In this document: piece after piece, positions 6,153 to 59,947 of the stretch
Layout of the letters: each line of letters opens with the position of its first letter
Position numbering within the stretch: the first letter of the stretch is position 1
Source of the DNA: a virus
Taxonomy: Duplodnaviria; Caudoviricetes
Strand: one strand, 5' to 3'
Length of the DNA: 64,000 nucleotides
IMG/VR virus record: IMGVR_UViG_3300032138_000006
Coordinates: 29,325-93,324 of that record
The notes under the pieces: generated by a model
Told to the model about the DNA's origin: nothing
Database searches by the model: none
What the model saw: only the letters and a program-made list of their open reading frames with translations
Position numbers and translations under genes: made by a program

Positions 6153-6160
6153 AAAAGTGC

Positions 6161-6189: not shown

Positions 6190-6247
6190 GTAAACTAGAA
6201 ACTTGGAAGATTAGCTGAGTTTACTTTAACAACTAGGAGAAAAGCCA

Positions 6248-7021: not shown

Positions 7022-7027
7022 TCCATT

Positions 7028-7060
7028 CCCACAGGGAGGCACAGGGTTATCAGGTGTCTT
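7028..7060 (+). repeat. 33 nt intergenic structured element, copy 1
   Basis: CCCACAGGGAGGCACAGGGTTATCAGGTGTCTT; 30/33 identical to 7533-7565. Confidence 0.85.
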
Positions 7061-7089
7061 GTTATTTTACTATAAAAAGGATTTAAACC

Positions 7090-7515
7090 ATGAGTAAAGC
7101 AGAAAACGGACAGAGCGTTAAGGTGCATTACAAGGGTACTCTGAGCGATGGCACGATATTTGACAGTTCGCGTGATCGAGGAGAAACCTTGGATTTTGAG
7201 TTAGGGGGAGGCGATCTTCTTCCTGATTTTGAGGGTGCTGTTATCGGAATGGAGGTAGGCGAGGTGAAGTCGTTTACTATTGCGGAGGGTTATGGCGCTC
7301 ATCAACAAGATGCAGTGGTGCCAGTGCCAAGAGCAGCCTTTCCGGAAGATTTTGAGTTTACCATCGGGCAGACTGTTGGGGGTACTAGTGCCTCTGGTCA
7401 GCCCATCCGGGCAGTTGTTACAGAGGTTGGCGACGAACAAGTCACCTTGGACCACAACCACCCCTTGGCGGGTAAAGACCTCAATTTTGAAGTCGAGCTT
7501 GTAGAAGTTTCTTAA
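7090..7515 (+). CDS. slyD: FKBP-type peptidyl-prolyl isomerase (SlyD/SlpA family)
   Basis: VKVHYKGTLSDGTIFDSS and LDHNHPLAGKDLNFEVELVEV. Confidence 0.9.
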   Translation: MSKAENGQSVKVHYKGTLSDGTIFDSSRDRGETLDFELGGGDLLPDFEGAVIGMEVGEVKSFTIAEGYGAHQQDAVVPVPRAAFPEDFEFTIGQTVGGTSASGQPIRAVVTEVGDEQVTLDHNHPLAGKDLNFEVELVEVS

Positions 7516-12666: not shown

Positions 12667-15102
12667 ATGACACTGGATACAGCCCGAGAGAGAACTTTAA
12701 AATATTTTGACGGAGATGAGCTAGCAGCTAATGTCTTTCTAACAAAATACGCCCTTAAGAACAAGATGGGGGAAGTGCAAGAGCAAACTCCAGACGTGAT
12801 GCATGACCGTTTGGCAAAACAGTTTGCAAGGATGGAAGAAAAATTTGGTGGCAACCGCCAGTTGTCGTATGAGGAAATTCGTAAATCGTTTGACGGCTTC
12901 AAGTGCATCGTTCCACAGGGATCAGTAATGTTTGGCTGTGGCAATGATTATGTTCACGCATCGCTTTCCAACTGCGTCGTGGTATCTTCTCCGGAAGACA
13001 ATATGTCATCTATCGTCGAGACCGGCAAAGACCTAGCAAACCTCTTTAAGCGCCGCTGTGGCGTCGGCGTTGATATCTCAGAACTACGCCCAGAAAACAC
13101 ACCAGTTAATAATTCTGCTGGCACCACCACAGGAGCTTGGTCGTTCGCAGATTTTTATTCTTATGTGTGCCGGATGGTTGGGCAAAATGGTCGCCGCGGA
13201 GCACTGATGATTTCAATGGACGTTAGACATCCAGATATCGAACAGTTTGTGACGATGAAGCATGACTTATCAAAGGTCACCGGAGCAAACGTTTCAGTAA
13301 AACTGAGTGATGATTTCATGCATGCGGTTGATTCTAATGCAGACTTTCTTTTGCGCTACCCGGTTGATTCTGAACCAGACGAGGCGGTTAACTTTACGAA
13401 GACCATCCGCGCTCGTGACTTGTGGGAAAAGATTGTCGAGAGCGCCACCAAGACAGCCGAACCGGGATTGTTGATGTGGGACAATATTAAAAAGAACCTT
13501 CCAGCCGAGTGTTATGCTGATGTTGGATTTCAGACCATCTCCACTAACCCCTGTGCAGAGATCCCCCTGTCATCTCACGATAGCTGTCGTCTGATTTCCA
13601 TTAATTTAAAAAACTTTGTCAAGAAGCCATTCACCAAGGGCGCATATTTTGATTATGAAGATTTTGGCAAGAATGTTACTATGGCAATGCGCCTGTCTGA
13701 TGACTTGGTTGAATTGGAAGCAGAGCAACTGGCAAAGATAATTAAAATTGCCGATACCAAGGACGAAAAGAAGCTTTGGACAAAGCTGCGCAAAGCCTGC
13801 CTTGAGGGTCGCCGTACAGGTCTGGGCACGCACGGCTTGGCTGATGCTGTTGCTCGCTTGTGCATGCGTTATGATTCTGATGAAAGTGTCGTCGAGATTG
13901 ACAAGATTTATGGTACTCTAAGAGACAAAGCCTATGAAGAGAGTGCGCGCTTAGCCCAAGAAAGGGGTTCTTTTCCAGTGTTTGATTGGGAAAAAGAAAA
14001 GAATAATGCCTTTATCCGCCGCCTGCCAAAGCGTATCCAAAAAATGATCGCTGAGGCTGGTCGACGCAATATCTCTATTTTGACAAACGCCCCGACGGGC
14101 AGCGTATCGATCTTGTCACAAACCAGTTCCGGCTTAGAGCCGGTGTTCCGCAATTCGTATGTGCGACGTCGCAAGCTGAACCACAACGAGCAAGGCATTG
14201 AACCAGACTTTGTTGACGACTTGGGGGATCGCTGGGTGGAGTATAAAGTTTTTCACCACAACGTCGAAGAATGGACCAAACATCATTCTGGCGCCGGTAC
14301 TGAATTGCCTGATTTCTTTGTAGAAAGCGACCAAATCGATTGGACACGTCGAGTTAAAATTCAGGCGGCAATTCAAAAGAATATTGATCATGCGATTAGT
14401 TCCACGATCAACCTTCCGGAAAATACTTCTCCTGATGTTGTTGCCGATCTTTATATGAGAGGCTGGAAAGAGGGGCTCAAAGGCATTACTGTATACGTTG
14501 ATGGCAGTCGTACCGGCGTACTGGTCACTGGCAAAGAGGACACGTCTGACACGTTCCCTCAAAACGGTGCGCCACATAGACCCGAGGTTGTTGATTGCGA
14601 CATTCACCACACCACAATCAAGGGCGAAAAGTGGACTGTCCTCGTTGGTATTTATGAGGGTCGACCCTATGAGGTGCTCGGGGGGTTGTCTAATTTAATT
14701 GAAATTCCGAAGCGGCACACCGAGGGTCGTTTAACAAAGCACAGGTTTAAGACAAGGACCAACCGATATGACTTGACATTTGGTGTAGATGATGATACGA
14801 CAGTGGTAAGAGACATCGTTCGCGTATTTGATAATCCAAACGAGTCTGCGTTTACACGAATGATTTCTCTTGCCTTGAGGCATGGTGCCCCACCGCGCCT
14901 TTTGGTGGAACAACTACAAAAAGATAAGGACAGTGATATGTTTAGCTTTGCTAGATGCGTTGCTAGAATTCTTAAGAATTATATCCAAGACGGAGAGCCT
15001 GCCGGGGACAGGGATTGTCCTGAGTGCAGCGCAGAAGATGGGCTGGTCTACCAAGATGGTTGCGTGGCTTGCCGTCAGTGTGGTTATGCAAAATGTGGAT
15101 AA
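12667..15102 (+). CDS. nrdJ: Class II (B12-dependent) ribonucleotide reductase
   Basis: SNC, GQNGRRGALM, TNPCAEI, APTGS, KGITVYVDGSR, C-terminal CPEC..C..C..CG. No R2 gene nearby. Confidence 0.9.
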   Translation: MTLDTARERTLKYFDGDELAANVFLTKYALKNKMGEVQEQTPDVMHDRLAKQFARMEEKFGGNRQLSYEEIRKSFDGFKCIVPQGSVMFGCGNDYVHASLSNCVVVSSPEDNMSSIVETGKDLANLFKRRCGVGVDISELRPENTPVNNSAGTTTGAWSFADFYSYVCRMVGQNGRRGALMISMDVRHPDIEQFVTMKHDLSKVTGANVSVKLSDDFMHAVDSNADFLLRYPVDSEPDEAVNFTKTIRARDLWEKIVESATKTAEPGLLMWDNIKKNLPAECYADVGFQTISTNPCAEIPLSSHDSCRLISINLKNFVKKPFTKGAYFDYEDFGKNVTMAMRLSDDLVELEAEQLAKIIKIADTKDEKKLWTKLRKACLEGRRTGLGTHGLADAVARLCMRYDSDESVVEIDKIYGTLRDKAYEESARLAQERGSFPVFDWEKEKNNAFIRRLPKRIQKMIAEAGRRNISILTNAPTGSVSILSQTSSGLEPVFRNSYVRRRKLNHNEQGIEPDFVDDLGDRWVEYKVFHHNVEEWTKHHSGAGTELPDFFVESDQIDWTRRVKIQAAIQKNIDHAISSTINLPENTSPDVVADLYMRGWKEGLKGITVYVDGSRTGVLVTGKEDTSDTFPQNGAPHRPEVVDCDIHHTTIKGEKWTVLVGIYEGRPYEVLGGLSNLIEIPKRHTEGRLTKHRFKTRTNRYDLTFGVDDDTTVVRDIVRVFDNPNESAFTRMISLALRHGAPPRLLVEQLQKDKDSDMFSFARCVARILKNYIQDGEPAGDRDCPECSAEDGLVYQDGCVACRQCGYAKCG

Positions 15103-26006: not shown

Positions 26007-27227
26007 ATGGGAAAAACTAGTTTAAAAGAAATAAAAGAACTCATTAAAGAAGAAGTTCAGAAATCACGACACAGTATACTACTGGAATCTCCAGAGATGC
26101 TCGATGAAAAGAGCATTTTAAAGAACAAATACCCGTTCAAGGCAATTTATATCTTTGGACCGGCAGGGTCGGGAAAATCATATATTGCTGGAAACTTGCT
26201 AGGAATTCCGACAGACTTTGTTGTCTCTAACCCCGATGAGCGGATTGAAGCGGTGTTCCCCGCTTTCGGTGTCAGTATGAAGTTCGTTAACTCTAATGAC
26301 GGCGACGATGCCGATTTGGAAAAGATCCAGCAGACATCGCGTAAAATTTTACAGAGAGCCACAAAAGCCCATACAGCAAATTTGGTTGGCATCGCAAATC
26401 CCATTCTGTTTGACACCACTGGAGAGAAGGTGCCTAAGATGGTTAATCGTATTAAGAATTTGACCAAATTGGGATATGACGTCGCAGTCTTTATGATAAA
26501 TGTCCCAACACAAGCCTCTGTTGAGCGTGACGCTCGCAGAAAACGAGTTGTTGGAGCAGAAAGAACAGCGGGTATCTCACAAGCCTATCAAAAGGACGTC
26601 GTACAGTCTCAGGGATATCTTAAGGCTCTTGCTGACAATGAACATGTGACCATTTTATCTGATGTCTACAATAATATTTTTGATCTGAATACCGGAGATC
26701 TCTTGACAAAACCAACGGTTATCACACCAGATATGCTTCCGGATGATCTAAACCCCGAGAAAAACCCCGAAGCGTTTGCCAACGAGAAAGCCAAGATAGA
26801 GCAAGCCGTCAGCAGTCTTCAACAGTGGGTCAACACTCCGGTGGAAAATCCGGGCGGTCAAACAGTGCTCAAAGGTATGCGGACTCTGGTTAAAAAATCT
26901 GGGGGCAAATTGGGTCAAAATTTAAATGACATTGTTGTGGCAACACGAAACGAAGAATTTCAAGATCCAGACATCCTCGCTGCGGCTGAACACCTTGGAT
27001 CACTCGGAGGTGTTAAGAGAACAATCAGGCGTTCTCAAGCAGCCGCCCCGCTGGTCAAGACCCGGCATCAGCGGGTCGACCCGGAGACAGGGGAAACCTA
27101 TACGGCACATAAGTCTCGCCAACATGGGGAAATTGACACTATTCGCGGAATGACACAAAAAGAAGCATTAAATTACGATAATTTGGTCGATTTAGTTCGC
27201 GACGTCTTAATTAAAGGTGATGGATGA
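26007..27227 (+). CDS. Zeta-toxin/AAA_33-like P-loop kinase with leader peptide
   Basis: GPAGSGKS, NPD, LFDTTG, SVERDARRKRVV; N-terminal LKEIKELIKEE. Confidence 0.7.
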   Translation: MGKTSLKEIKELIKEEVQKSRHSILLESPEMLDEKSILKNKYPFKAIYIFGPAGSGKSYIAGNLLGIPTDFVVSNPDERIEAVFPAFGVSMKFVNSNDGDDADLEKIQQTSRKILQRATKAHTANLVGIANPILFDTTGEKVPKMVNRIKNLTKLGYDVAVFMINVPTQASVERDARRKRVVGAERTAGISQAYQKDVVQSQGYLKALADNEHVTILSDVYNNIFDLNTGDLLTKPTVITPDMLPDDLNPEKNPEAFANEKAKIEQAVSSLQQWVNTPVENPGGQTVLKGMRTLVKKSGGKLGQNLNDIVVATRNEEFQDPDILAAAEHLGSLGGVKRTIRRSQAAAPLVKTRHQRVDPETGETYTAHKSRQHGEIDTIRGMTQKEALNYDNLVDLVRDVLIKGDG

Positions 27228-27825: not shown

Positions 27826-28521
27826 TTGAAAAATTACCTTGCTGGAAAGAAGAAGAAGGCGAAGGCAGAAGAAAAGCCAAAAGAAGAGGCGGATGAGGCT
27901 TCGGCGGAATCGGTCCTTGCCTCACTGTTGATGGAAGCCGCCGAGACAGACGACAAGCCAAAAACCCAAATGATCAGCATGTACGGCGAAGTCGAAGAAG
28001 AAAAGATTGGCGAAATAGCATATGCTCTTCGAGTGCTTAGTTCTTTAAATGTTCAGAAGAAAGACGAACATGCTCGCAAGGAAAAAGATGGCGACTGTGA
28101 GCCGGATACGGTGGAGTTGATCTTGTCCACTCACGGTGGCTCTGCTGCTGATATGTTCTCGCTATACGACACCATCCGCTGGTGCCGCTCAGAGGGCACT
28201 CCAATCGCCACAACCGGCATTGGAAAGATTATGTCAGCCGGGGTCCTCCTAATGGCTGCTGGCTCCAAGGGCAGGCGAAAGATCGGAGAGAACTGTCGCG
28301 TGATGCTCCACGGTGTTGCCTCTGGGCACGTTGGTCAGATTCATAACTTGGAGAACGAGTTGGATGAAGCCAAGTGGACGCAGGATCGATATATCAAGGC
28401 ACTCGTTAAAGAAACCAATATGACCGCTGCCTACATCAAGAAGTTGTTTGATCGTCGTCAGAATGTCTACCTCACGGCTGAAGAAGCCGTTGAGTTAGGT
28501 ATCGCTGACGAGGTGTTTTAA
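27826..28521 (+). CDS. Divergent ClpP-family protease
   Basis: STHGGS, IMSAG (Ser), VMLHG (His), YLTAEEAVELGIADEV. Confidence 0.85.
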   Translation: MKNYLAGKKKKAKAEEKPKEEADEASAESVLASLLMEAAETDDKPKTQMISMYGEVEEEKIGEIAYALRVLSSLNVQKKDEHARKEKDGDCEPDTVELILSTHGGSAADMFSLYDTIRWCRSEGTPIATTGIGKIMSAGVLLMAAGSKGRRKIGENCRVMLHGVASGHVGQIHNLENELDEAKWTQDRYIKALVKETNMTAAYIKKLFDRRQNVYLTAEEAVELGIADEVF

Positions 28522-28564: not shown

Positions 28565-31755
<3,191 letters not shown>

Positions 31756-34885: not shown

Positions 34886-35800
34886 ATGGATTCTGTTAAC
34901 GAAAGGTTTAAAGACTTTGCAAAGTCTCACTGCTGGCAGTACGAGATGCGCATTCGTAATTTAGAGGACGATATGTTAGCAGCGGGGCTTTGCGAGTACT
35001 CGGCTGCGCAGCTTCGCATCGACGACTTCGTTTTTGAGCATATATCAAAGGAAGACAAGGAACAGTGCCAAGAGATTAAGCGGTTTATTGAACGACACGA
35101 GTGGCTTGGAAAACTAAGCCAAAGAAGCACACATCGGTTTACAGCGAGGCTTAAGAACGGCACCCTCGCAGGCGTTGTTATTATGGCAACTCCAAATGCT
35201 TTTTCGAATCTACTGGGAAGGGAGAACCGGGACAAGGAAAAGTTGATTTCACGGGGGGCTTGTATTTCGTGGGCTCCTAAAAATCTTGCCTCTTGGCTCA
35301 TTATGAATTCTATAAAGTGGATGGTCAAGAACACAGAATTCAGGTACTTCACCGCGTACTCAGACCCGGAAGCCAAAGAACTCGGCACAATATATCAAGC
35401 GTGCAACTTTTATTATTTAGGGCAAACTAGCGGCACTACACATCAATATCTTGATCCCATTCGCCCAGAGAAGGGCTGGTTTAGTGATCGTGATTTCAGA
35501 AAGAAGTCAAAATATTTTAAATATGCTGAGGCAATAGGGATCACTAGAGACACTTGGAAGGGTTGGATGAAAAAGTATTCTCCAGACTGGGAGAAGGTCC
35601 CGCCAGATATTAAAATAAAAATTAAAGAACAAGAGCGGATTTACCGAGACAGTTGTAAGAAAAGAAAGGTGCCAGCCAAGCACAAGTATTGTTATATCTT
35701 AGGTCAAACGAAGTCTGAAACAGCACGCCTAAAAAATATTTTTGCAGAAAAAAGTCCAGATAAGGCAAACCTACCTTATCCGAAAAATAGAGGAAAATGA
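34886..35800 (+). CDS. Mom-family (GNAT) DNA base-modification enzyme
   Basis: FIERHEWLG, PKNLASWLI, TAYSDP, GTIYQACNFYYLG. Confidence 0.75.
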   Translation: MDSVNERFKDFAKSHCWQYEMRIRNLEDDMLAAGLCEYSAAQLRIDDFVFEHISKEDKEQCQEIKRFIERHEWLGKLSQRSTHRFTARLKNGTLAGVVIMATPNAFSNLLGRENRDKEKLISRGACISWAPKNLASWLIMNSIKWMVKNTEFRYFTAYSDPEAKELGTIYQACNFYYLGQTSGTTHQYLDPIRPEKGWFSDRDFRKKSKYFKYAEAIGITRDTWKGWMKKYSPDWEKVPPDIKIKIKEQERIYRDSCKKRKVPAKHKYCYILGQTKSETARLKNIFAEKSPDKANLPYPKNRGK

Positions 35801-35828
35801 AGGGGTGCTTTAACCGGCGCTCCTTTTT
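35801..35828 (+). terminator. Intrinsic terminator
   Basis: AGGGGTGCT/GGCGCTCCT hairpin followed by a T tract. Confidence 0.6.
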
Positions 35829-35847: not shown

Positions 35848-35856
35848 ACTATTTAT
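35848..35856 (+). promoter_or_regulatory. Putative late promoter ACTATTTAT heading the leader-protein cluster
   Basis: Recurrent motif immediately after a terminator. Confidence 0.55.
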
Positions 35857-35877: not shown

Positions 35878-36174
35878 ATGAACACACTGACCAAACAAGA
35901 TTTAGAAAAACTTATACTTGAAGAGATTGATAAGATGGCTACGACCTCACCAACAATAAATGAGGAATCCGCCGAAACTCCCTTGCCACAGGAAGAGACA
36001 GATCCAACACAGCAATACGTTGATTGGATCGTCGCTATCAACGAAGCTTCACGCGAAGCCATCCAAGAAATTGAGGGTGGTACTGAGCCGTATCAGGCGG
36101 CACTGGGATCAGGGCTCGCCCATCTGGCGCAAGATCTGACCAGTTCTGATTTTTGGCATCACTTTCACGGGTAG
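35878..36174 (+). CDS. Small acidic leader-bearing protein
   Basis: LTKQDLEKLILEEI leader; INE site. Confidence 0.55.
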   Translation: MNTLTKQDLEKLILEEIDKMATTSPTINEESAETPLPQEETDPTQQYVDWIVAINEASREAIQEIEGGTEPYQAALGSGLAHLAQDLTSSDFWHHFHG

Positions 36175-36183
36175 GAGAGAACA

Positions 36184-37158
36184 ATGGGAAAGAAGAGACT
36201 TACAGAAATTGCCATCCGAGAGTGGGGAGAATTTCTTCGCGAGGCACCAGACGCCGCCGCCAAAGCCGCTGAGGCTGGCGCCGCGGCAAGCACAGGCTTG
36301 TCTGATTTATATAAAAAAGCAAAAGATGCAGAAAAGGGGCGGGCAGACGCCATGGCGGATTTGGCAGCATCGACCGATGCGGAGAAGAAGGTGGCTGTTG
36401 CAACACAAAAGCTTGCAAAAGATCGGTCATCTGCATACCAAGGAGCAATCAAGGCTCGTGATGGCGCTAGCAAGCTCCGAGATCAATCCAGCAAGGCTGG
36501 CAAAAAGAAAGAAGACGCCCTTAGCGCAGCAGCCGACGCCCAAGAACAGCAAGCAAAAGCCGAGGAGATGGCAGCAAAAGCCTCAGAAGTTGTGGCTAAG
36601 TCCTCCGAACAAGCCGCATCCGTAGAAGCAGAAATGGCAAAAATCAATGCGCAGTTTGAAAAAACAAATCAAGAATTAAATAAAGCTGCGGAAGAATTCT
36701 CCGATCTTGACGCACAATTTGCGGATGTATCAAAGCAAGCGGCTGGCGCTGCGGATGAGGTAAAGAGCGCACAAGAGGCGGCCGCCGCGGCTCAGGAAGA
36801 GGCTAGCAAGTTAAGCAGCGAGTTTGAAGCAGCGTATCAAGCAGCCAGCGACGCAGCTAAAGATGTCGCCGGAGCGTCTTCAGAGGAAGATCCCGCCGCG
36901 GCAACAGAAGTTCCCGCCGAAGCCGAAGAGGAAGAAGAAGCCGAAGAGGAAGAAGAAGCCGAAGAGGATAAAGAAGAAGAGGAAGCCGAAGAGAAAGATG
37001 CTGATCGTGAAGAGGCGGACAAAGAAGCACAGGCTGACGTTGATGCAAAAAAAGCAGAAGACGAGGCAGAAGCCGAGGCGGAAGAAGCTACGGAAGAACC
37101 GCCGGCGGAAGATATAAAAGAAAGCTTCAGTCGATTTCAAAAAATGTGGAGGGGCTAA
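36184..37158 (+). CDS. Ala/Glu-rich coiled-coil protein (scaffold/internal protein-like)
   Basis: IREWGEFLRE leader; long coiled coil; acidic tail. Confidence 0.6.
   Translation: MGKKRLTEIAIREWGEFLREAPDAAAKAAEAGAAASTGLSDLYKKAKDAEKGRADAMADLAASTDAEKKVAVATQKLAKDRSSAYQGAIKARDGASKLRDQSSKAGKKKEDALSAAADAQEQQAKAEEMAAKASEVVAKSSEQAASVEAEMAKINAQFEKTNQELNKAAEEFSDLDAQFADVSKQAAGAADEVKSAQEAAAAAQEEASKLSSEFEAAYQAASDAAKDVAGASSEEDPAAATEVPAEAEEEEEAEEEEEAEEDKEEEEAEEKDADREEADKEAQADVDAKKAEDEAEAEAEEATEEPPAEDIKESFSRFQKMWRG
36918..36993 (+). repeat. Coding tandem repeat, 18 nt unit GAAGCCGAAGAGGAAGAA
   Basis: About 3-4 units encoding EAEEEE. Confidence 0.7.
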
Positions 37159-37161
37159 TGA

Positions 37162-37458
37162 ATGTCAGCAAGGGCAAGAAAGATTATAAAATGGGTTGGA
37201 GTCTTTTTGGTACTTCTTGCCTTTTGGATGGTGTTGCTATGTGGACCATCAATGGTTAGCGCAGAGACCAAGCCCCCAACGAACACAAAGTCAAAATTTT
37301 ATGACTTCAGCGAGCAGTTGATCGATGGAGAGATCAGGAAACCCCAAGCGCTTTATACAAACTCCCGCGCAAAGGTCAAGTTTGAACGTCTGCTTAGGCT
37401 TAAGAGATCATTTTTGCCAGACCTGATGGAAACCGCAAAGCAAAAAGTTTTTAAATAG
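37162..37458 (+). CDS. CglF/GltF-like exported protein (gliding-motility family)
   Basis: Signal peptide then YDFSEQLIDGEIRKP.....R....FERLLRLKRSFLPDL, matching my recollection of the CglF pattern. Confidence 0.6.
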   Translation: MSARARKIIKWVGVFLVLLAFWMVLLCGPSMVSAETKPPTNTKSKFYDFSEQLIDGEIRKPQALYTNSRAKVKFERLLRLKRSFLPDLMETAKQKVFK

Positions 37459-37471
37459 AAAGGACTACATA

Positions 37472-38440
37472 ATGCGTACCAACAGAGATATGAGGCTGAT
37501 TTTAGAGAATTGGCGAGGATATATAGAAAAGACCGAGAACGATGATCTTGGTACTATTCACTTGTTCGAGAATAGCACAGAAGTATCATCAATGAGTTTT
37601 GATGATTTGCTCAAGGAACATGACAAGGGTGTTATAAGCGAAGAAAGATTCTTTCAAATTTGGGAACAATCAACATCTCACGAATATGATCTGCTTTTGC
37701 AGGAGGGCATCGCGGATGCGCTATCCGGCGCGTTTGAAAGGGCTAAGGGCGGCGCCATAAGAATTAAGGACACAATAACAGACACTGCAAAGGCTGCGCT
37801 CCAAAAAGTCACCAGCTTTTTTACTAGACTTTTGTCTCGTGTTGCTGCGATGATCAAGAAGGGTTTCGATGCTGTTGTTAAAGCAGCCCAGTTTGTATGG
37901 GGCAAGATAAAGGGCTTTAAGGAGAAGCATCCAATTCTTTTTTGGATTATAATTGCCCTTATTATAGCCGCGATCACTGCCGCCGTTTATATGCAGTTGG
38001 TCGACCCCGACACCGCACAGGCAATTGCCCAATGCGCGGGAGGGGCGATGAGCGAGACAGTTGAGTGTGGCGGCGGTATGGCTCTCTCGCAAAACGGCTA
38101 TGAGGCAGCAAGAGGTCTTATCCACGAGATGGGGCAGCATATGAGCAGCGAAGGCGGCGACCCGGCTAATATTGAACTCCTGACGTCAGAGGCAATGCAG
38201 ATTCTTGATTCAGCTAATGGAGATGCTTCAAGCATAGACCTAAGCGAACTCAGCGGCAAGGCGGCAGAACTAGCCAGAGTTGCTGCGGATAATGTTGAAA
38301 AGATAGTCAACGAGATGAAGGGTGGAGATGAACAATCGTTGCAAGATCTTGAAGCGCTCAAAGATATTGGTCAGAGTATAAAACAGTCTTTTGGCGGCAG
38401 CGCGCCACAGGGTCCGACCACTACGGGCGTTGGCTTATAG
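37472..38440 (+). CDS. Leader-bearing protein with an internal TM helix
   Basis: MRLILENWRGYIEKTE; LLQE site; ILFWIIIALIIAAITAAVY. Confidence 0.6.
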   Translation: MRTNRDMRLILENWRGYIEKTENDDLGTIHLFENSTEVSSMSFDDLLKEHDKGVISEERFFQIWEQSTSHEYDLLLQEGIADALSGAFERAKGGAIRIKDTITDTAKAALQKVTSFFTRLLSRVAAMIKKGFDAVVKAAQFVWGKIKGFKEKHPILFWIIIALIIAAITAAVYMQLVDPDTAQAIAQCAGGAMSETVECGGGMALSQNGYEAARGLIHEMGQHMSSEGGDPANIELLTSEAMQILDSANGDASSIDLSELSGKAAELARVAADNVEKIVNEMKGGDEQSLQDLEALKDIGQSIKQSFGGSAPQGPTTTGVGL

Positions 38441-38464
38441 ATTAATGAGGCGGAGATAACGTAC

Positions 38465-39145
38465 ATGGCAGGTTCTTCATATGGCGACGACGCCAACATC
38501 TCTGGCTCCGTCACAATTAATGACGATGGAATTTCGTCGTCAGATCTCCGTGTAGAATCGGACAATGAAACGCATATGTTTTTTGTGGATGCATCCACCA
38601 ACCATGTCGGTGTTGGCACATCATCCCCGCAAGTACCTCTCGATATCTACGAGATGGGCGGGTTGATCCTCGGCTATACTCGTCTAAACAATGCCGACGG
38701 TACTGACAACACAACTTATCAAGTGCAAGCTTCGGGCACCGGCTTTGCTGTGCCAAATAATCGATGGCGAACCGATTTCACAGCCCCAGCCAGCGGAAAG
38801 GTTGAGATTAATTTTAGAGGCGCCTTGGTTTCAAATACGACTGGCGGGACTGACTGGGTAGCTTTGGGCTTGTCAGATAGCGACACATATAATTCCATTG
38901 GGTCAAAATATGAAAAGGTTGTCGACACGCCAACAGAAGTCGCTAGCGCTGGTGTAACACACAGAATTGTGAACCACAGTTGGTTTTGCGACGGGTTGAC
39001 AGCGGGAACGTCCTACTCCATATATATTGGCACGGTTGGAAGAACAACGGCACACTATTGGTATTGGGGCGGATCGGATTCATTCGAGCACGCCGATATT
39101 ATAATTACCACCACTGCCTTGCCCAACACTTTTGTAACGGATTGA
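38465..39145 (+). CDS. Fibre-like virion protein
   Basis: DLRVESDNETHMFFVDASTNHVGVGTSSP repeat-type motif; beta-sandwich-like C-terminus. Confidence 0.6.
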   Translation: MAGSSYGDDANISGSVTINDDGISSSDLRVESDNETHMFFVDASTNHVGVGTSSPQVPLDIYEMGGLILGYTRLNNADGTDNTTYQVQASGTGFAVPNNRWRTDFTAPASGKVEINFRGALVSNTTGGTDWVALGLSDSDTYNSIGSKYEKVVDTPTEVASAGVTHRIVNHSWFCDGLTAGTSYSIYIGTVGRTTAHYWYWGGSDSFEHADIIITTTALPNTFVTD

Positions 39146-39149
39146 TAGT

Positions 39150-39329
39150 ATGATAAACTTGCCCAATATGAAACAAGTTCTGATTGCCTGCGTGGGTATC
39201 AACGTTGCCCTCCTTGCCGGAGGTTTAGCCTTGGAAGACTACCAACTCGTAACACTGGCAGTGCTTTCAGGCGCTTCTTGCTTACTGGGCATCCGTGTTA
39301 GAAGGCAGATCGACGAGGAGCAAGAATGA
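39150..39329 (+). CDS. Small two-TM membrane protein (59 aa, not in the ORF track)
   Basis: MINLPNMKQVLIACVGINVALLAGGLALEDYQLVTLAVLSGASCLLGIRV...; ATGA overlap with the next gene. Confidence 0.55.
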   Translation: MINLPNMKQVLIACVGINVALLAGGLALEDYQLVTLAVLSGASCLLGIRVRRQIDEEQE

Positions 39330-39928
39330 AACTCATAATGGAAAGCTGGCGCAGACACTTGAACGAAAGCGAAACAAACGCGATTGCAGTAGGCTCTTAT
39401 GTTGTCGTTGCTGACGAGCCCGATATCCCGCCGGGACGAGTGATGGAAATAGATGATACGATGGCTGTAGTCCGGTGGAGTAACGGAAGGGAAAATTTTC
39501 AGATGGTCCGCGATCTTCAGGTGGTGAGTGATGTTTCTGAGAGCAAGCACTTGAACGAGGAAGCGATAGGGCAATGCTACCCACACGCTGTACAGATGGC
39601 GAAGGACTGGTATAGCCAGAGCTTGGATATGAGCAAGCCCGTTGGCAAGGGTCGCGTTAGCCCGGACATTGACAACAAAGATAAATTTAAAGTTGTCCAT
39701 GGGCGCATCACCGACAAGTTCAGCGGAGAGAGTGTTCTGCACGCTTGGGTAGAAAAGGAAGATGTGGTATTTGATTGGCAATCTGGCAGCACAAAGCCGG
39801 AAGGGATTTCCAAGGCAGATTATTATGAAATGTACCAGCCCGAACCGCACGAAGAATACACAGCAGAAGAAGCGATGACCGCGTGTATGAGGGCTGGTCA
39901 CCAAGGACCGTGGACGGATAAAGAATGA
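39326..39928 (+). CDS. Leader + SH3-like + papain/transglutaminase-like domain protein
   Basis: MKLIMESWRRHLNE; second HLNE site; GQCY...LHAWVE...VFD triad. Confidence 0.6.
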   Translation: MKLIMESWRRHLNESETNAIAVGSYVVVADEPDIPPGRVMEIDDTMAVVRWSNGRENFQMVRDLQVVSDVSESKHLNEEAIGQCYPHAVQMAKDWYSQSLDMSKPVGKGRVSPDIDNKDKFKVVHGRITDKFSGESVLHAWVEKEDVVFDWQSGSTKPEGISKADYYEMYQPEPHEEYTAEEAMTACMRAGHQGPWTDKE

Positions 39929-41211
39929 AACATTTATTTAACCATTGGCGAGGATATCTCCTAAACGAGGTGACCACTGTTCCCCCGGAACATATGCAAG
40001 CCTTCAAGGATACCATAACCAGTTCCAAGTTCTGGGACTTGCCGCATACTGAAGACGATGTTGACCTTGGCTCCGCAGATGAGCTTACTACAGACGCAGC
40101 CCAAGCACTGATGGATGCTTTGAACGAGACAGCCGAGAGACTGGGCACAGAAATATATTTTCTTTTCACAGTTACCGATGAGGCAGAATACGCACTGGGT
40201 CCAGACAGCCCATATCCCGGTTACCCAGACAACTGGCTAATGCGAGGAGCATACCAAGGACCACAGCAGGGCAAACACGTTGTCTGGTTCCAGTTCCGTC
40301 CATTGGGCGAGGGCTTTGAGATGGACAAGCTCAACCCAACTGCCTTGGTTAAAGTATTGTCACAGACTTTAAATCACGAGCTAGTACACTACTATCAGCT
40401 TAAGAAGCAAGCCGACAGCAAGGGGATCAGTGATGAAGAGGCATGGGCAGAACTAGAGAAGGACCCCAAGCAATTGCCGCAAGATAGCGCAGAGCAGACC
40501 TACCTCGGCTTACATAACGAGATAGATGCTTATGCTCACGAAGCAGCAGAGCAATTGCTGGACAAGCACTCACCAGAAGAGGCACTGGGCATCATCCGCA
40601 AACTATCAGCAGACAATCTGGATCAATACCCAGAGATCTCTTCGGTTATTGAGAAATATATGAAAGCATTTAAGGACGATCCAAAAACACTGGATAAGTT
40701 CCGAAAGAAACTGGTTAGCCAAATTGAAAAGCAGGCAGGTATGCAAGAAATATTTAATAATTGGCGTACCTTTTTAACAGAAGGCGGAGGGCGAACTTTA
40801 TATTATATCGGCAAGGGACCAGCCAAGCCGCAGCCAGCAACAGGTTTGTCTGGCGGTCCTGAAGGCTGGGAGCGATCACAGCACGATGAGCCGGTGGGAA
40901 GCGGAGTATTTTTATCTCCCAATCCCATTGGCATTTATCACAATCACCATGTGACTGGCAATGTATATGCTTACGACGTTTCACACTCGGCAATTAAAAA
41001 AGCCGGTGGGCTTCAAAGACATGACTGGGGGACAGAGGTTTTGTTCCCCGAGGATGTTTGGAATGAGGCTGAGGCTTCCGGAGAGATTAAGTTCCTCGGA
41101 AAGAGCATGGGCAAGGACGAGTTTGAAAAGAAAGCTGACGCCGCCCCAGCCAGCGCAGGGCGAACAAATGTTAGAAAGGTGGCAGAACTAACACAGAGGA
41201 TAAAAGTATAA
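39925..41211 (+). CDS. Leader + HExxH domain + second leader + ART-like domain
   Basis: MKHLFNHWRGYLLNE; NHELVH...EIDAY; MQEIFNNWRTFLTE; LYY...GVFLS...TEVLF. Confidence 0.55.
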   Translation: MKHLFNHWRGYLLNEVTTVPPEHMQAFKDTITSSKFWDLPHTEDDVDLGSADELTTDAAQALMDALNETAERLGTEIYFLFTVTDEAEYALGPDSPYPGYPDNWLMRGAYQGPQQGKHVVWFQFRPLGEGFEMDKLNPTALVKVLSQTLNHELVHYYQLKKQADSKGISDEEAWAELEKDPKQLPQDSAEQTYLGLHNEIDAYAHEAAEQLLDKHSPEEALGIIRKLSADNLDQYPEISSVIEKYMKAFKDDPKTLDKFRKKLVSQIEKQAGMQEIFNNWRTFLTEGGGRTLYYIGKGPAKPQPATGLSGGPEGWERSQHDEPVGSGVFLSPNPIGIYHNHHVTGNVYAYDVSHSAIKKAGGLQRHDWGTEVLFPEDVWNEAEASGEIKFLGKSMGKDEFEKKADAAPASAGRTNVRKVAELTQRIKV

Positions 41212-41663
41212 TGAAACTTATAATGGAAAACTTTAGGAAATTTATTAAAGAGACACAATGGGGAGGCTTTACTGGAGGCGCCGCGCCACTAGACGAACCA
41301 GCACCTGACAGTGGTCAGGTTCCCCCGGAGCAGTTGAGAAAGATGTGGGAGCTTTATATTGAAATGGGTATGAGCCCCGAAGAGATTTTGCAAACCCCAG
41401 AGTTTGTTGAAGCTGGGATTACCGATCCCGAACAACTGCAAGAGGCAATCACTCTCGACATAGAAATCGGAGACATTGTTCTCGGCGGCAAATATAAAAA
41501 TAAAAGAGTTGAAGTAAAAGAGATCGGCACCGATGATATCGGTCAGCCAACAATCAACGGCAAAACACTTTTAAAGTTTAGAATCGAGAAGCAACTACCT
41601 GACAGCAAAAAGAGCAAGAAGACGCTTGATGCGGAGAAAGAGGATGGGCAAACTAAAGATTAA
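41211..41663 (+). CDS. Leader-bearing two-module protein
   Basis: MKLIMENFRKFIKE; LQE followed by ITLDIEIGDIVLGGKYKNK...GQPTING. Confidence 0.6.
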   Translation: MKLIMENFRKFIKETQWGGFTGGAAPLDEPAPDSGQVPPEQLRKMWELYIEMGMSPEEILQTPEFVEAGITDPEQLQEAITLDIEIGDIVLGGKYKNKRVEVKEIGTDDIGQPTINGKTLLKFRIEKQLPDSKKSKKTLDAEKEDGQTKD

Positions 41664-42111
41664 ATCTATTGCAGTGCTTTTGTGGTTCTCCGTGATTGCA
41701 ATTGTCGCCACGGTGATCACGTTATCCTGTGGGACAAACAACAAATATGTGGAAGGCAATACTCAGGTCAGTGTTGAGTATTTCGGCGAACCTATTCATA
41801 ACACCTGCTATCCAAACTTTGTGTGCGAAGTGAGTACGACAGCTTGTGCGGTTGGACTGTACGAGGATGCAACAAAGACTGCGGGTAAGGGAGTGATGGC
41901 TCTTCGCAAGGAGGACTACCGGGATGCTGCTTATCTTTTTTCTTATGCCCTCTGCACCATAATTAATATTGATAAAGTGTTTGAACAAATGAAAGCAGAA
42001 GACAAAGAGGCTTGGGATGAACACCGAGCTAGCGGATTCATTGAAGAAGTCAGAATGACCGGATTGAAGATCGGGATCGTGATTGACCAGATAAAGGACT
42101 TGAACAAGTGA
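41644..42111 (+). CDS. Putative lipoprotein
   Basis: Hydrophobic signal ending TLSC. Confidence 0.5.
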   Translation: MGKLKIKSIAVLLWFSVIAIVATVITLSCGTNNKYVEGNTQVSVEYFGEPIHNTCYPNFVCEVSTTACAVGLYEDATKTAGKGVMALRKEDYRDAAYLFSYALCTIINIDKVFEQMKAEDKEAWDEHRASGFIEEVRMTGLKIGIVIDQIKDLNK

Positions 42112-42812
42112 AACTTTTAATGGAAAGCTGGCGAAAGTTCTTGACAACCTTGAACGAAGATGGTACAGTTAGGTCTGGCATCCAAAATGGTCACTACTCT
42201 CGGGATACCCGTAACAAGATTGGCTTTGATGGTTATGCCAAGAGCACAGACCCCGCATCTAAAACGAAAGGAGGCTTCTTGGCAGAAGCAGCTAAAGATA
42301 CCATTGTAGCATTTTTCGGACCATCTGGGTCTGGGAAGAGCTTCGCTAAGAAACATTTTGTGGACCAAGGCTGGAGGGAGATCCGCACCAACACCACCCG
42401 CCCGCCAAGAGGAGCGGAGGATAAAGAATATAATTTCTGGTCAGAAGAAGAGTTCAAAGAGCTTATGGATGCTGGCAAGCTCGTTAACACGAACGAGTAC
42501 CAAGGGAATTGGTATGGCACCCATGTCGACGATCTTAATGAGCCGGGTTCAGCCGTGATGCTTACGGACACAACCAGCTTGGATAAGCTCAAGCAGGTAG
42601 CCGGGGATCGCCTCACTCTTGTATACACCGCCCCGCCTTCAGATGCGGAGATGGAAAAGAGACACAAGGATCGTGGCACGCCAGAGCGACTGGCAGTTGC
42701 AGCCGCAGAGAAGGAGCGGGACACTGCCGAACTCGCAGATCGCGGCGACGTGCTGACCGTCAACAATCAACAAGAAATTGAAGATTTAGAGCAGCAATTG
42801 CGTGCTTTTTAG
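42108..42812 (+). CDS. gmk: Guanylate kinase with leader peptide
   Basis: GPSGSGKS, TTRPPR.E..EYNF, EYQGNWYGT; N-terminal MKLLMESWRKFL. Confidence 0.8.
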   Translation: MKLLMESWRKFLTTLNEDGTVRSGIQNGHYSRDTRNKIGFDGYAKSTDPASKTKGGFLAEAAKDTIVAFFGPSGSGKSFAKKHFVDQGWREIRTNTTRPPRGAEDKEYNFWSEEEFKELMDAGKLVNTNEYQGNWYGTHVDDLNEPGSAVMLTDTTSLDKLKQVAGDRLTLVYTAPPSDAEMEKRHKDRGTPERLAVAAAEKERDTAELADRGDVLTVNNQQEIEDLEQQLRAF

Positions 42813-43114: not shown

Positions 43115-43738
43115 GTGGCGCGAGACACCAAAGCAAAATACATATTGATTTGGCTGTTTGCGACAAGCGTTTTATATTTTTTAGTTCAATATGCGGTAAG
43201 TCATAGCTATTCTTTCATGACCCCGCTTGATAATCTCATTCCTTTTGTGCCCGAGTTCATCTGGCTGTATCATACTCTGATTCCGGCAATTATTATAACG
43301 ACGATCTTTTCTATGGAAAAGAGGAGTGTGTTTTTTAATACCATATTGGCTTTATCCATTTCAGCCGTAATATTAACAATTTGTCATATACTGTTTCCTT
43401 CTTTTTACCCGCGGCAAGCAATAGATACAGGCTCCATATCACTGTGGCTAGTGGAGGTGACTAGGGCAATGGACGCCGCATGCAACACTTTTCCATCTGG
43501 ACATGTTGCCTTTGCGTGGATTTTATATTTTTGTATTGGCGACGCTGAGTGCATAAAGAGAACGAAGTGGCTTCGACTGACCTATTTACTGTGGGCAATT
43601 TTAATTACTTTGTCCACGCTGGTTCTTAAGCAACATTATATCTTTGATGTTGTCTCAGGGCTTGCGCTGGCGTGGCTGTCTGTTGCTGCGGCAAAGAAGA
43701 TAAGAGGTCGGTATTTTCATGCGAACGAAAACCTTTGA
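43115..43738 (+). CDS. PAP2-family membrane phosphatase/phosphotransferase
   Basis: Multiple TM helices; NTFPSGH; KQHYIFDV. Confidence 0.85.
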   Translation: MARDTKAKYILIWLFATSVLYFLVQYAVSHSYSFMTPLDNLIPFVPEFIWLYHTLIPAIIITTIFSMEKRSVFFNTILALSISAVILTICHILFPSFYPRQAIDTGSISLWLVEVTRAMDAACNTFPSGHVAFAWILYFCIGDAECIKRTKWLRLTYLLWAILITLSTLVLKQHYIFDVVSGLALAWLSVAAAKKIRGRYFHANENL

Positions 43739-50987: not shown

Positions 50988-52313
50988 ATGAGCGATAACC
51001 AAGTTATTTGCTGTTCCTTTTGCGCCAAGGCGCAAGCTGATGTCCGGACAATGGTTGCCGGTACAAAGGTGTTTATCTGTGACGAGTGTGTTGAACTTTG
51101 CATGGATATTGTCGACGAAGAATACGAGTTCAAGAAAGATAAGCAGGAAGCAGTTGAAGAGCCCCAAGAAATATTCACTCCCCAAGAAATATACGACCGC
51201 CTTGGTGAATATGTAATTGGGCAAGAGACAGCTAAAAAGTTTTTGTCCGTAGCTGTGTACAACCACTACAAGCGTGCGTCAATCAATCGCGCCGCCGACG
51301 GCAGTGTTGGCAGCAAAAGACGCCGCCGTCGAACCAAGAAGCCGAAGGACCACTTCGATTTGGAAAAATCCAACGTTTTGCTAATTGGTCCTACGGGCTC
51401 TGGTAAGACATTGCTAGCCAAAACACTAGCCAAGATTCTGGACGTGCCGTTCGCCATCGCAGACGCGACGTCTTTAACTGAGGCTGGATATGTCGGCGAA
51501 GATGTGGAAAACATTCTGCTATACCTAATCCAAAATGCCAATGACAACTTGGACGCAGCCGCACGAGGCATTATCTACATTGACGAAATCGATAAAATTG
51601 CGCGAAAGTCTGAGGGTGCGTCGTCGACCCGTGACGTGTCGGGCGAAGGCGTGCAGCAGGCACTCCTCAAGCTCATTGAGGGCACCGTGGCGAATATCCC
51701 CCCCAAGGGTGGGCGCAAGCACCCCAACCAAGAATACACGCGACTGGACACAAACAATATTTTATTTATCTGTGGGGGCGCTTTTAGCGGGATTGAAGAT
51801 GTTGTGCTTGAACGACTTGGCACCAAAGAGATTGGCTTCTCGAAAAAGACAGAGCAGCGGATCGATACCAACGAGATTGACAAAAACAAAATCTATGAAT
51901 ATGTCGAGCCCACCGACTTGGTTAACTATGGGCTGATATCAGAGTTCATCGGGCGCATCCCGGTGATCACATCTCTTGAGGCGTTGACCGAGGAGGCACT
52001 GCTCAAGGTGCTGACCGAGCCCAAAGGATCTGTCATCAAGCAGTATCAAAAGCTGTTCGATGTTGATGGCATCAAGTTGAGCTTTTCTGATGGCGCATTG
52101 CGTGCAATTGCTCAGGAAGCCATCCAGCGCAAGACAGGTGCCCGTGGATTGCGTTCCATTCTTGAAGCTGTCATGACCGACACCATGTTTGATGCGCCAA
52201 ATGAGAAGGATAAGATCGAAGAGATCCTCATAACCGAAAATGTTGTCAATGCGGGCTTGAAACCTGATATTACTTACAGAATTCCGGAAGAAAAAACGGT
52301 AGAAACTTGTTGA
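50988..52313 (+). CDS. clpX: ATP-dependent Clp protease ATPase subunit ClpX
   Basis: CSFC..CDEC zinc domain, [20 protein letters not shown] loop. Confidence 0.95.
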
Positions 52314-58306: not shown

Positions 58307-59364
58307 AACCATTCTTTAAATGGTCTGGCGGCAAGAGGCGCGAGATAAAAGTTGTGCGGCAGTACATGCCAACCCAATTTGACACGTTTTATGAGCCCTT
58401 TTTGGGAGGTGGTGCAATCTGGCTCGATCTAGAACATGATAAGAATGTTGTCAATGACAGCTATCCAGACGTCATGAACTTTTATAAAGTTTTAAAGAGC
58501 GATACTCACGACTTTATAAAGCACATCAACCAATTGAGTACCTCGTACGCTCAAGAGATGAACAATGTTGAAAGAGACCCAAAGTTTGAAAAACAGATTG
58601 AGGAAGTCAAAGGTGCCCTCGGCGGCATTCATGATTCAAACTTTAAAAAAGTACCGGCAATGTCAAAGTCACTCAAAGCCCTGCTTCGCGCCGGGGAACT
58701 GGACAAAAACAAACTGGGCTCAGTCATCGATGACCTTACCTCATGGGAAGAACAAGTAAAGGAAAAGAGAGCAGAACTCAAAGCCCTCAAAGAGGAGATG
58801 AATAAGCCGGTATATGAGATTGCCAACAATTATTATTATTACTATAGAAATAATGACTTCGGCTCTGATTTTGATAAAGCCGTGCAATTTTATATTCTTC
58901 GACAGCTTTCCTTCTCCGGCATGCTCAGGTTTGATGGCAATGGCAAGTTCAACGTGCCGTACGGCTGGTATAAGAGTTTTAAGGGAATAGAGGAGAACCC
59001 AGAAAACATTAAAAACGTGCTCGACAAAACACAGTTGATGTGCTGTGACTGGAGGGACAGCGTAGCTACTGCGACCAAAGATGATTTTGTCTTCTTGGAC
59101 CCGCCTTACACCAGAACGTTTACAAGTTATCACCCCAATGGTCAATTTGGTGATCAAGAGCATGAAGATCTGGCAGAGTGGTTCAAAACAACGAGCGCTC
59201 AGGTTATGATTATTCTCAATAGAGATGAGTTTACAGAAAATCTCTATGGAGAATATATTCTCGATGATTATGATTTTAAATATTCAATTCAGTACAGGGA
59301 TAGGATGACCGAAACGGATTCTAACGCCAAGCACTTTATTGCAACGAACTATAAAAAGGAGTGA
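58303..59364 (+). CDS. D12-class N6-adenine MTase with coiled-coil insertion
   Basis: WSGGK, EPFLGGG, FSG...FNVPYG, FLDPPY. Confidence 0.9.
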
Positions 59365-59365
59365 T

Positions 59366-59947
59366 ATGTATTATCCACCAACAGTAATTGAAAACACCAA
59401 AAATGGCGAGAGGTCGTACGACATATATTCTCGCCTTCTCAAGGATAGGATTGTGTTTTTGGGCACGCAGGTTGACAACAATGTCGCCAATTCTATCATC
59501 GCACAGCTACTTTTCCTCGATATGCAGGATCCAGAGAAGGATATCCTATTTTATATTAATTCTCCCGGTGGCTCTGTGACCGCTGGGCTGGGTATTCTCG
59601 ACACAATGAATCACATTAATGCCGACGTGGCTACTGTATGTGTTGGGCAGGCAGCATCAATGGGAGCCCTGCTTTTGTGCTCCGGAGCCAAGGGAAAGAG
59701 ATCGATATTGCCCAACGCTAGAGTGCTCATCCACCAACCCCTCGGCGGCGCACAGGGACAAGCTAGTGATATTGAAATCCATGCCAATGAGATTGTGCGA
59801 TTGAAGGGGCGCTTAAATCGCATTATGGCAAACGCCACGGGCAAGACGTTGAAGAGTATTAAACAAGACACTGACCGTGACTATATCATGGACGCTGAGC
59901 AAGCCGTAGAGTATGGATTGGTTGATCATGTTGTCGATGATAAGTAA
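59366..59947 (+). CDS. clpP: ATP-dependent Clp protease proteolytic subunit
   Basis: [33 protein letters not shown]. Confidence 0.95.

Follow-up and report, generated by a model that had tools for sequence, protein, structure and literature searches.

A modular N-terminal leader as a candidate capsid-targeting tag for injected enzymes in an uncultured T4-type phage

Why should unrelated enzymes encoded side by side in a phage genome begin with the same short peptide? The question is raised by a gene cluster at positions 35878 to 42812 of a 64,000-nucleotide stretch of viral DNA (the window, to which all positions refer unless the contig is named), which represents bases 29325-93324 of the 93,324-bp contig IMGVR_UViG_3300032138_000006 and has nearly all of its genes on the plus strand. 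A previous inspection of the letters alone (the sequence-only reading) had proposed that the peptide is a portable tag that loads diverse payloads into the phage head, new cargo being recruited by recombination at the leader. The explanation favored here, with a probability of roughly 0.65, is that the leader acts as a cleavable capsid-targeting tag for injected enzymes, by analogy with the capsid-targeting sequence (CTS) of bacteriophage T4.

The first type of leader has the consensus M-K-L-I-M-E-(S/N)-W-R-x-(F/Y/H)-(L/I)-x-E and comprises 14-17 residues. A search of the six-frame translation of the whole contig with the core expression [LIVMF][ENQ].[WF]R.[FYHW][LIVM] returned exactly six matches, all on the plus strand between positions 37499 and 42117. 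Five of them head open reading frames (ORFs) at the places already indicated (39326, 39925, 41211, 42108 and, from Met7 onwards, 37472), and a sixth copy, which had been missed, lies directly after a methionine inside a 428-amino-acid ORF (Table 1). The assertion that the leaders end in L/I-x-E holds for five of the six window copies and fails for that of the 37472 ORF. Three leaders are near-identical in their DNA (RTGAAACTYWTAATGGAAA), as had been observed before, and the region 5′ of the leader start codons shows no conservation in the window. The peptide IREWGEFLRE at 36184, previously counted among the leaders, retains W at position -6, F at -3, L at -2 and E at 0 and is a looser variant that falls outside the core expression. 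A second leader type, represented by [LI][EKR][EK][LIV]I[LKRQ]EE, has four matches in the six frames of the contig, all on the plus strand and 7-23 residues past a first methionine; besides the three sites recognized earlier (26007, 28565 and 35878), the expression finds one at contig position 331.

The leader is not confined to this contig. In the IMG/VR database, a DNA pattern fixing only residues 1-9 (M-K-L-[ILFM]-M-E-x-W-R) gave at least 130 matches at 120 or more loci. Nearly all matches listed stand at ORF starts or behind MSE or MSD, only about three look like chance, and at least 119 distinct ORFs carry the leader at or near their start. Conservation extends to the positions left free by the pattern: among the 119 distinct leaders in the matches listed, residue 11 is Y, F or H in 86%, residue 12 is L, I or V in 71% and residue 14 is E in 68%. 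An L/I-x-E motif ends at residue 14 in 66 of these 119 leaders and between residues 12 and 20 in 89, against a background of 1.2% per position. The finding that 117 distinct DNA copies of the leader use every synonymous codon (for example, six codons each for Leu3 and Arg9) while the peptide stays fixed indicates that selection acts on the peptide and not on the DNA. This bears on the possibility that the genes owe their common 5′ end to duplication or to a nucleic-acid element, such as a translation-initiation region or a recombination site, and that the encoded peptide has no role. The near-identity of three window leaders and the tandem arrangement of the genes would fit such an origin. A nucleic-acid element is nevertheless contradicted by the free choice of codons, the region upstream of the start codons is unconserved, and common descent of whole genes is excluded because the cargos include unrelated Pfam families. 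An origin of this kind is considered highly improbable.

What follows the leader varies widely. With the leader removed, 102 cargos fall into at least 69 BLAST clusters, and the six window cargos have no BLAST match to each other or to the remaining cargos. Among the 96 IMG/VR leader proteins listed, Pfam recognizes GNAT (4), AAA_33/Zeta_toxin kinases (3), M23 peptidase, NUDIX, HD, C5 DNA methylase and 2H phosphodiesterase families, most of the proteins belonging to no family. One and the same cargo can also stand behind different leaders. The Cys-His domain encoded at 39326 has about 100 environmental homologs, mostly of about 120 residues and made of leader and domain only, and their leaders are of the classes MKLLMENWRxYLxE (29), MKLLREYIRxLLxE (39) and MKKLLTEWRKYLKE of the LTEWR type (8), with a few such as MKITRRQLRQIIKE. 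L/I-x-E is present in 81 of 82 of these homologs, and in 72 the glutamate precedes the first conserved glycine of the fold by 3-6 residues. The cargo designated VVYHYT follows MKLLMENWRKFLKE (an ENWR leader) in a marine contig, MIKLKSLLQE in Microcystis phage Mel-JY01, MQKLQDLLFE in LR756508 and the T4-like leader MKKFNEFANELAE in a KVP40-type vibriophage, and every one of these leaders stops right before the conserved domain. In this vibriophage, Vibrio phage K566, the protein concerned (L197:6010-6591) starts with MKKFNEFANELAE, a close cousin of the T4 CTS, followed by AV; its cargo is common to marine, Microcystis and megaphage relatives, and the protein could be an experimentally tractable bridge.

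Both halves of the 428-residue ORF are found elsewhere as separate leader-cargo genes (P0102, P0105, P0110), and the cargo of the 41211 gene has counterparts in relatives that are fused behind the HExxH module of this ORF: in P0107, P0112, P0119 and P0122, the HExxH module, an internal leader and a 41211-like cargo follow each other in one ORF. Because the halves stand alone elsewhere and the internal leader precedes different cargos, cassettes seem to have been exchanged exactly at the leader. The earlier proposal of recruitment by recombination is borne out by these relatives as regards the place of exchange; recombination itself is deduced from the alternative architectures. Since the leader is kept as a peptide with free synonymous variation, DNA homology could drive exchange only between close copies.

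Upstream of the window, the contig encodes T4-type large terminase, portal, prohead protease, major capsid protein, sheath, tube and tape-measure proteins. The corresponding protease of T4, gp21, cuts after L/I-X-E and removes propeptides of 10-19 residues (PMC9026906). In alignments, the maturation site of T4 gp23 (FLTE/AE) corresponds to ELLRE/AS in the contig, to sites of the same ELLRE type in the relatives G014 and G024 (ELLRE/NS, ELLRE/AS) and to QLISE/AN in Mel-JY01. Candidate core proteins adjoining the protease and capsid genes contain L/I-x-E at 4-5% of positions, compared with 1.3% for all contig ORFs. The scaffold gene lies at contig 13707-14690, and further core candidates are encoded at contig 4115-4945 and 6511-6930. 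The motif is densest in the 35878 ORF of the cluster (5 sites in 98 residues, 5.1%), whose product is a candidate core-like protein that would be cut to pieces. These features are consistent with, although no proof of, a T4-like L/I-x-E specificity of the prohead protease. All seven leader-bearing contigs that are at least 90% complete encode Peptidase_S77, as do 23 of the 65 leader-bearing contigs of at least 21 kb among the matches listed; complete small genomes are absent from the 65, those of 21-58 kb being 11-32% complete according to CheckV.

The co-occurrence of leader and gp21 is not unique, because ClpP (PF00574) likewise occurs in 10 of the 12 leader-bearing genomes tested, including six of the seven near-complete ones. 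The leader might thus be a recognition tag by which the phage's Clp system or a chaperonin times degradation, unfolding or folding, with no role in the capsid. ClpX and two ClpP-like genes are present in the window, two genes carrying the second leader type flank the second ClpP-like gene, and an N-terminal motif reportedly recognized by ClpX is loosely fitted by the leader start (methionine, a basic residue and three hydrophobic ones). Two leader-bearing genomes (91% and 82% complete), however, have no ClpP match, and the leader often stands away from the free N-terminus: after six residues in the 37472 protein, behind MSE or MSD in numerous IMG/VR ORFs and, within the 428-residue ORF, 272 residues from the start; this internal copy is conserved in relatives even though a Clp N-degron would need a free N-terminus. 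A Clp tag also leaves unexplained why all leader classes have a terminal L/I-x-E before the cargo fold and why the VVYHYT cargo of the KVP40-type vibriophage comes with a leader resembling the T4 CTS. Late expression alongside structural genes would, moreover, be odd for a degradation tag. Such a role appears distinctly unlikely. Two of the leader-bearing genomes carry two ClpP copies, and candidate roles for the second ClpP-like gene of the window are a host-like ClpXP or a second head protease.

The helical hydrophobic moment of the window leaders is 0.4-0.7 and lies above about 97% of shuffles in four of the six. Together with four small hydrophobic or membrane proteins encoded in the same operon, this amphipathic character would suit a docking helix for a membrane-bound or cytoplasmic multi-enzyme complex, involving neither proteolysis nor packaging. 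Docking would, however, require neither a glutamate conserved two residues past L/I, with a constant spacing to the cargo across four leader classes, nor internal copies at module joints, and it does not account for a tag that occurs only in genomes encoding a head protease of the T4 type and is essentially absent from cellular ones; it is regarded as an unlikely explanation. The scarcity in cellular genomes is illustrated by 596 Gb of prokaryote sequence, in which the DNA pattern used for IMG/VR matched 46 places, only three to four of them full leaders, all in contigs of metagenome-assembled genomes (MAGs); the remaining matches are out of frame or belong to an unrelated Salinibacter protein. 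Full leader ORFs in contigs binned as bacterial or archaeal were seen at L173, L177, L163 and L176, the first being CP070664.1, a WOR-3 MAG "chromosome" of 2.8 Mb (an odd case), and the second the Pelagibacter MAG TMED166. These ORFs are probably mis-binned phage DNA.

If the leader is a head-targeting tag, the time at which the cluster is expressed becomes relevant. From 35878 to 42812, eleven ORFs follow each other, separated or overlapping by a few bases. They are preceded by a terminator-like hairpin and by the motif ACTATTTAT, an AGGAG Shine-Dalgarno sequence lying between this motif and the start at 35878. In its general form, [AC]CTA[TAC]TTAT, the motif has 13 copies on the plus strand of the contig and none on the minus strand; 11 of the 13 are intergenic and lie 25-52 nt ahead of starts, including those of scaffold, sheath and tube genes, and a further gene with the second leader type, at 28565, is preceded by a late-promoter-like motif at 28533. 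The strand bias recurs in two complete or near-complete relatives (26:0 in G014 and 13:1 in G024), one of which has a copy ahead of its leader-gene array. Judged by the genes it precedes, the motif is read as a late promoter. The classical T4 late promoter, TATAAATA, was rejected as a late signal: it has two copies per strand, and no structural gene of head or tail is preceded by one. In view of the upstream terminator and the late-promoter-like motif, 35878-42812 is taken as one unit, the 3′ end of which is set only by a 300-nt gap because no clear terminator was found 3′ of 42812. In several IMG/VR relatives (L041, L105, L110, L120, L098, L071, L052 and L116), ACTATTTAAT or ACTATTTAT stands merely 2-6 nt ahead of the leader ATG, a distance that leaves no room for a normal 5′ untranslated region behind a promoter, and may there be a conserved spacer between cassettes or mark leaderless transcripts. 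The neighbors of the operon are, directly 5′, a gene for a 304-residue Mom-family protein (34886-35800; PF25680, E 9.5e-13), which may modify DNA, and, just 3′, one for a PAP2-superfamily membrane phosphatase (43115-43738; PF14378, E 5.7e-14).

Table 1. Leaders, genes and other features of the locus and of the head-gene region (window positions unless the contig is named)
Feature	Position	Strand	Remarks
Portal (gp20 homolog)	same contig, upstream of window		Portal_T4, PF07230, E 2.5e-81
Prohead protease (gp21 homolog)	contig 5879-6514, upstream of window		Peptidase_S77, PF03420, E 1.9e-35
Major capsid protein (gp23 homolog)	same contig, upstream of window		Gp23, PF07068, E 1.6e-70
406-aa protein, second leader type	26007..27227	+	..IKELIKEE..; outside 35878-42812
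Second ClpP-like gene	27826-28521		PF00574, E 1e-25; long Lys/Glu-rich N-terminal extension
531-aa protein, second leader type	28565..30160	+	..IIREVIREE..; outside 35878-42812
Terminator-like hairpin	35799..35826	+	11-pair stem, then T-rich tail; closes upstream Mom-family gene; 5′ boundary of unit
Late-promoter-like motif	35848..35856	+	ACTATTTAT; 30 nt before first start codon
98-aa ORF, second leader type	35878..36174	+	..DLEKLILEE..; regular-expression match
324-aa protein, variant leader	36184..37158	+	MGKKRLTEIAIREWGEFLRE; Ala/Glu/Lys-rich, very acidic (translation)
98-aa ORF, no leader	37162..37458	+	N-terminal hydrophobic segment (translation)
322-aa protein, leader after six residues	37472..38440	+	one hydrophobic segment (translation)
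Leader of 37472 ORF, from Met7	37490-37537		MRLILENWRGYIEKTE
226-aa ORF, no leader	38465..39145	+	phrog_5906 (unknown function), E 7e-6
59-aa hydrophobic ORF, no leader	39150..39329	+	translation
200-aa four-piece protein	39326..39928	+	leader, ~60-aa beta module, second HLNE, predicted Cys-His hydrolase
Leader of 200-aa protein	39326-39367		MKLIMESWRRHLNE
Second HLNE	39548-39559
Predicted hydrolase domain (Cys-His)	39560-39925
428-aa two-cargo protein	39925..41211	+	leader, HExxH module, internal leader, predicted ART-fold module
Leader of 428-aa protein	39925-39969		MKHLFNHWRGYLLNE
HELVH	40375-40389		residues 151-155
Internal leader	40741-40782		MQEIFNNWRTFLTE; directly after a Met
ART-fold module	40783-41208
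150-aa protein, leader and small cargo	41211..41663	+	fold not recognized
Leader of 150-aa protein	41211-41252		MKLIMENFRKFIKE
161-aa ORF, no leader	41626..42111	+	signal- or lipoprotein-like N-terminus (translation)
234-aa protein, leader and kinase	42108..42812	+	guanylate-kinase-family P-loop kinase
Leader of 234-aa protein	42108-42158		(V)KLLMESWRKFLTTLNE; GTG start
ClpX	50988-52313		assigned by eye
ClpP	59339-59947		assigned by eye

Several kinds of payload had been named in the sequence-only reading, and most of them are recovered. The cargo of the 42108 gene belongs to the Guanylate_kin family (PF00625, 54 bits where the curated cut-off is 25.2, E 2.2e-14; phrog_1815, E 2.8e-26). The zeta-like kinase, encoded at 26007 and thus outside the cluster, has borderline matches to AAA_33 and Zeta_toxin (26.8 bits against a cut-off of 27 and 21.1 against 22.3, respectively). 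The membrane protein corresponds to the 37472 product, a candidate ejection or membrane protein whose PHROG matches are weak and to tape-measure families only. No Pfam or PHROG family was matched by the 36184 protein, and none of the window cargos matched the internal-protein families T4 IPI, IPII, IPIII or Alt in Pfam or PHROG.

The cysteine protease-like and ADP-ribosyltransferase (ART)-like payloads find support at the level of the predicted fold. In the 200-residue protein, HLNE occurs at residues 11-14 and again at 75-78, flanking an extra module of about 60 residues; the inserted module (39368-39547; ..GSYVVVADE..VVRWSNG..) resembles a small SH3/KOW-like beta domain. The Cys-His cargo behind it was modeled with AlphaFold 2 at a predicted local distance difference test score (pLDDT) of 90.8. 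Its best matches in VIA-align are NTAQ1 (3c9q; Z 7.2, root-mean-square deviation 3.0, 102 aligned residues) and LapG (Z 6.3), followed by protein-glutaminases, PeiW, cathepsins and C39 peptidases, and C6, H47 and H61 are invariant among its homologs. With Z scores in the middle range, it is likely to be a papain/transglutaminase-like cysteine hydrolase; a tblastn search of 50,697 phage records with the whole 200-residue protein gave no match. The second half of the 428-residue ORF (pLDDT 91.2) is best matched by MbcT (Z 6.9, root-mean-square deviation 3.5, 109 aligned residues) and ParT (Z 6.2), with RES toxins, Rhs ART toxins, diphtheria toxin, DarT and PARPs further down, so that the top 45 or so VIA rows are almost all ART-fold proteins. 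In 67 homologs a glutamate is invariant and a histidine and a tyrosine are near-invariant; the window copy has Tyr at the first motif position, where most homologs have His. An ART fold is likely for this module, the Z values again being middling. Its family comprises 204 representative clusters, some with other leaders and some inside proteins of 1000-3600 residues. Foldseek gave no significant match in the PDB for either model (E above 0.5 for the ART-fold module). The HExxH payload is present as HELVH in the first half of the 428-residue ORF and belongs to no Pfam family and has no solved relative by sequence; a protein atlas places it with viral clusters lacking Pfam assignments only, LPD23 and SprT-like proteins being weak leads at 0.85-0.86.

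The phage that carries these genes appears to be an uncultured marine myovirus of the T4 type. The cultured phages nearest in terminase are Flavobacterium phage immuto and Microcystis phage Mel-JY01, with thousands of T4 relatives farther out, and because terminase and protease are only 44-53% identical to those of the two nearest isolates, the phage is placed as a distant member of the T4 superfamily. A terminal repeat was looked for on the 93-kb contig and not found, and the size of relatives (185-203 kb) suggests that about half of the genome is present. One relative, a complete genome of 203 kb with terminal repeats, carries eight leader ORFs, most of them arrayed together, and another has five. 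Mel-JY01, immuto and LR756508 use other leaders; in these three, the strict DNA pattern ExWRx[FY][LI] gave chance-level matches only. After the protease and core genes, a 72-residue ORF (contig 6940-7158) resembles ribosomal protein bS21, and Mel-JY01 has an annotated RpsU S21 at the equivalent place.

Taken together with the T4 precedent, these data suggest the following course of events. The genes at 35878-42812 would form one late transcription unit for a set of internal head, or cargo, proteins. During prohead building, the leader would bind the scaffolding core; the gp21-type protease would then cut after the terminal L/I-x-E, and also at the internal motif copies that join two cargos. 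Candidate inner sites are FLTE/GGG at the joint of the 428-residue ORF and the second HLNE of the 200-residue protein. The freed enzymes would remain in the head and leave it with the DNA at infection, the injected set comprising the papain-like cysteine hydrolase, the HExxH module, the ART-fold module, the P-loop kinase, the membrane protein and others. The portable cargo tag of the sequence-only reading is thereby upheld in its sequence-based parts, namely a modular leader on unrelated cargos that ends in L/I-x-E, in a genome with a T4-type protease and a late-type promoter motif; loading into virions would follow by analogy.

Several observations weigh against this explanation. The copy of the 37472 ORF reads YIEKTE, without L/I-x-E where it would be expected, and in 30 of the 119 IMG/VR leaders listed no such motif falls within residues 12-20. 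L/I-x-E is, moreover, a weak motif, ending at residues 8-20 in 25% of all contig ORFs. The likeness to the T4 CTS is a four-position pattern with no detectable homology, and the distance from cultured relatives described above is considerable. The contig, at 93 kb of an expected 180-200 kb or so, is incomplete, the promoter motif is taken as late only from the genes it precedes, Clp genes are as widespread in the clade as noted above, and injection would be a strange fate for a guanylate kinase.

A wider version of the capsid-tag explanation, for which the chances are judged to be about even, is that the ENWR leader is one dialect of an interchangeable address code by which an abundant lineage of uncultured T4-type phages from the sea and fresh water loads dozens to hundreds of enzyme families into capsids. 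Further dialects would be MKLLREYIRxLLxE, MKITxxQLRxIIxE and MIKLKxLLxE, and the cargos would include ART-fold enzymes, cysteine hydrolases, kinases, GNAT and NUDIX proteins, 2H phosphodiesterases and methylases, some as polyproteins cut at internal leaders. What phages inject besides DNA is established for only a handful of model phages. Were the leader a capsid address with a cut site, it would be an inexpensive marker, readable from sequence, of the effectors that uncultivated phages inject for the first minute of infection. Many of the cargos are of enzyme types linked to host takeover or counter-defense (ART-fold, NUDIX, 2H phosphodiesterase, P-loop kinase, GNAT and methylase). In that case, moreover, the internal-protein system of T4 would be the pared-down extreme of a far larger cargo system that shuffles cassettes, and phage heads could be loaded with proteins by new natural tags. 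A search of a literature library found no paper on this leader.

The principle of the T4 tag has been known since 1996, and the value of the present system therefore lies in its scale and in the comparative proof of modularity rather than in a new mechanism. In T4 (NC_000866), IPII and IPIII both begin with MKTYQEFIAE, with Y at -6, F at -3 and I at -2 from the glutamate; the window leaders have W/F at -6, F/Y/H at -3, L/I at -2 and E at 0, and the two aromatic positions are kept in all six copies, a shared pattern but no proof of shared function. For T4, Asp at the cut is reported to prevent processing and to leave targeting intact. In the IPIII tag, residues 4 and 7 serve targeting and residues 8 and 10 processing, and the CTS has already been suggested as an evolutionary route by which T4-like phages load varied proteins (PMC9026906); the variable IP loci of T-even coliphages comprise more than 30 variants (PMC2839356, PMC3012670). 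Both systems place a short N-terminal propeptide, predicted as such in the present phage, on otherwise unrelated proteins, encode a gp21-family protease and keep variable cargo loci apart from the main head gene block. They differ in that the leader described here is longer (14-17 residues) and of other sequence (MKLIMENWRxYLxE), and its cargos are mostly enzymes of 100-400 residues, whereas those of T4 are small basic proteins. Internal leader copies giving two-cargo polyproteins and a far larger repertoire, with the 69 or more cargo clusters, further set it apart.

T4 Alt, a packaged and injected ADP-ribosyltransferase whose termini are processed by gp21 (PMC9026906, PMC5512222), offers a parallel to the ART-fold cargo, which also stands behind a short putative propeptide ending in the protease motif in a T4-type phage. 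In contrast to Alt, a member of the R-S-E family, the window module is nearer to the H-Y-E type and to RES/ParT/MbcT-like ARTs (Z 5-7), its activity being a prediction. Polyvalent proteins, which occur in phages and conjugative elements (Iyer et al. 2017, PMC5512222), likewise combine disparate enzyme domains in one chain with predicted delivery alongside the DNA, and the window ART-fold module also occurs inside the proteins of 1000-3600 residues mentioned for its family. The cargos described here, by contrast, mostly come from individual small genes that each carry an address tag of their own, and their joints are copies of the leader or cleavage motif, whereas polyvalent proteins use dedicated autoproteolytic domains. 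In the giant phages phiKZ, 201phi2-1 and SPN3US, many head-internal proteins (ejection or inner-body proteins) are processed after glutamate, a gp21-related protease cutting their propeptides at S/A-x-E (PMC9026906, PMC5694885); these propeptides are longer, share no single short tag and differ in the P3 preference. An N-terminal signal of at most 30 residues suffices to load the large enzyme DarB of phage P1, or a reporter, into the head (PMC9024508), although P1 is another type of phage and its signal has one known client and depends on other Dar proteins. Compared with all of these systems, the sequence of the leader, the scale and enzymatic nature of its predicted cargos, the interchangeable leader classes found per cargo and the putative use of internal leaders as polyprotein joints appear to be new.

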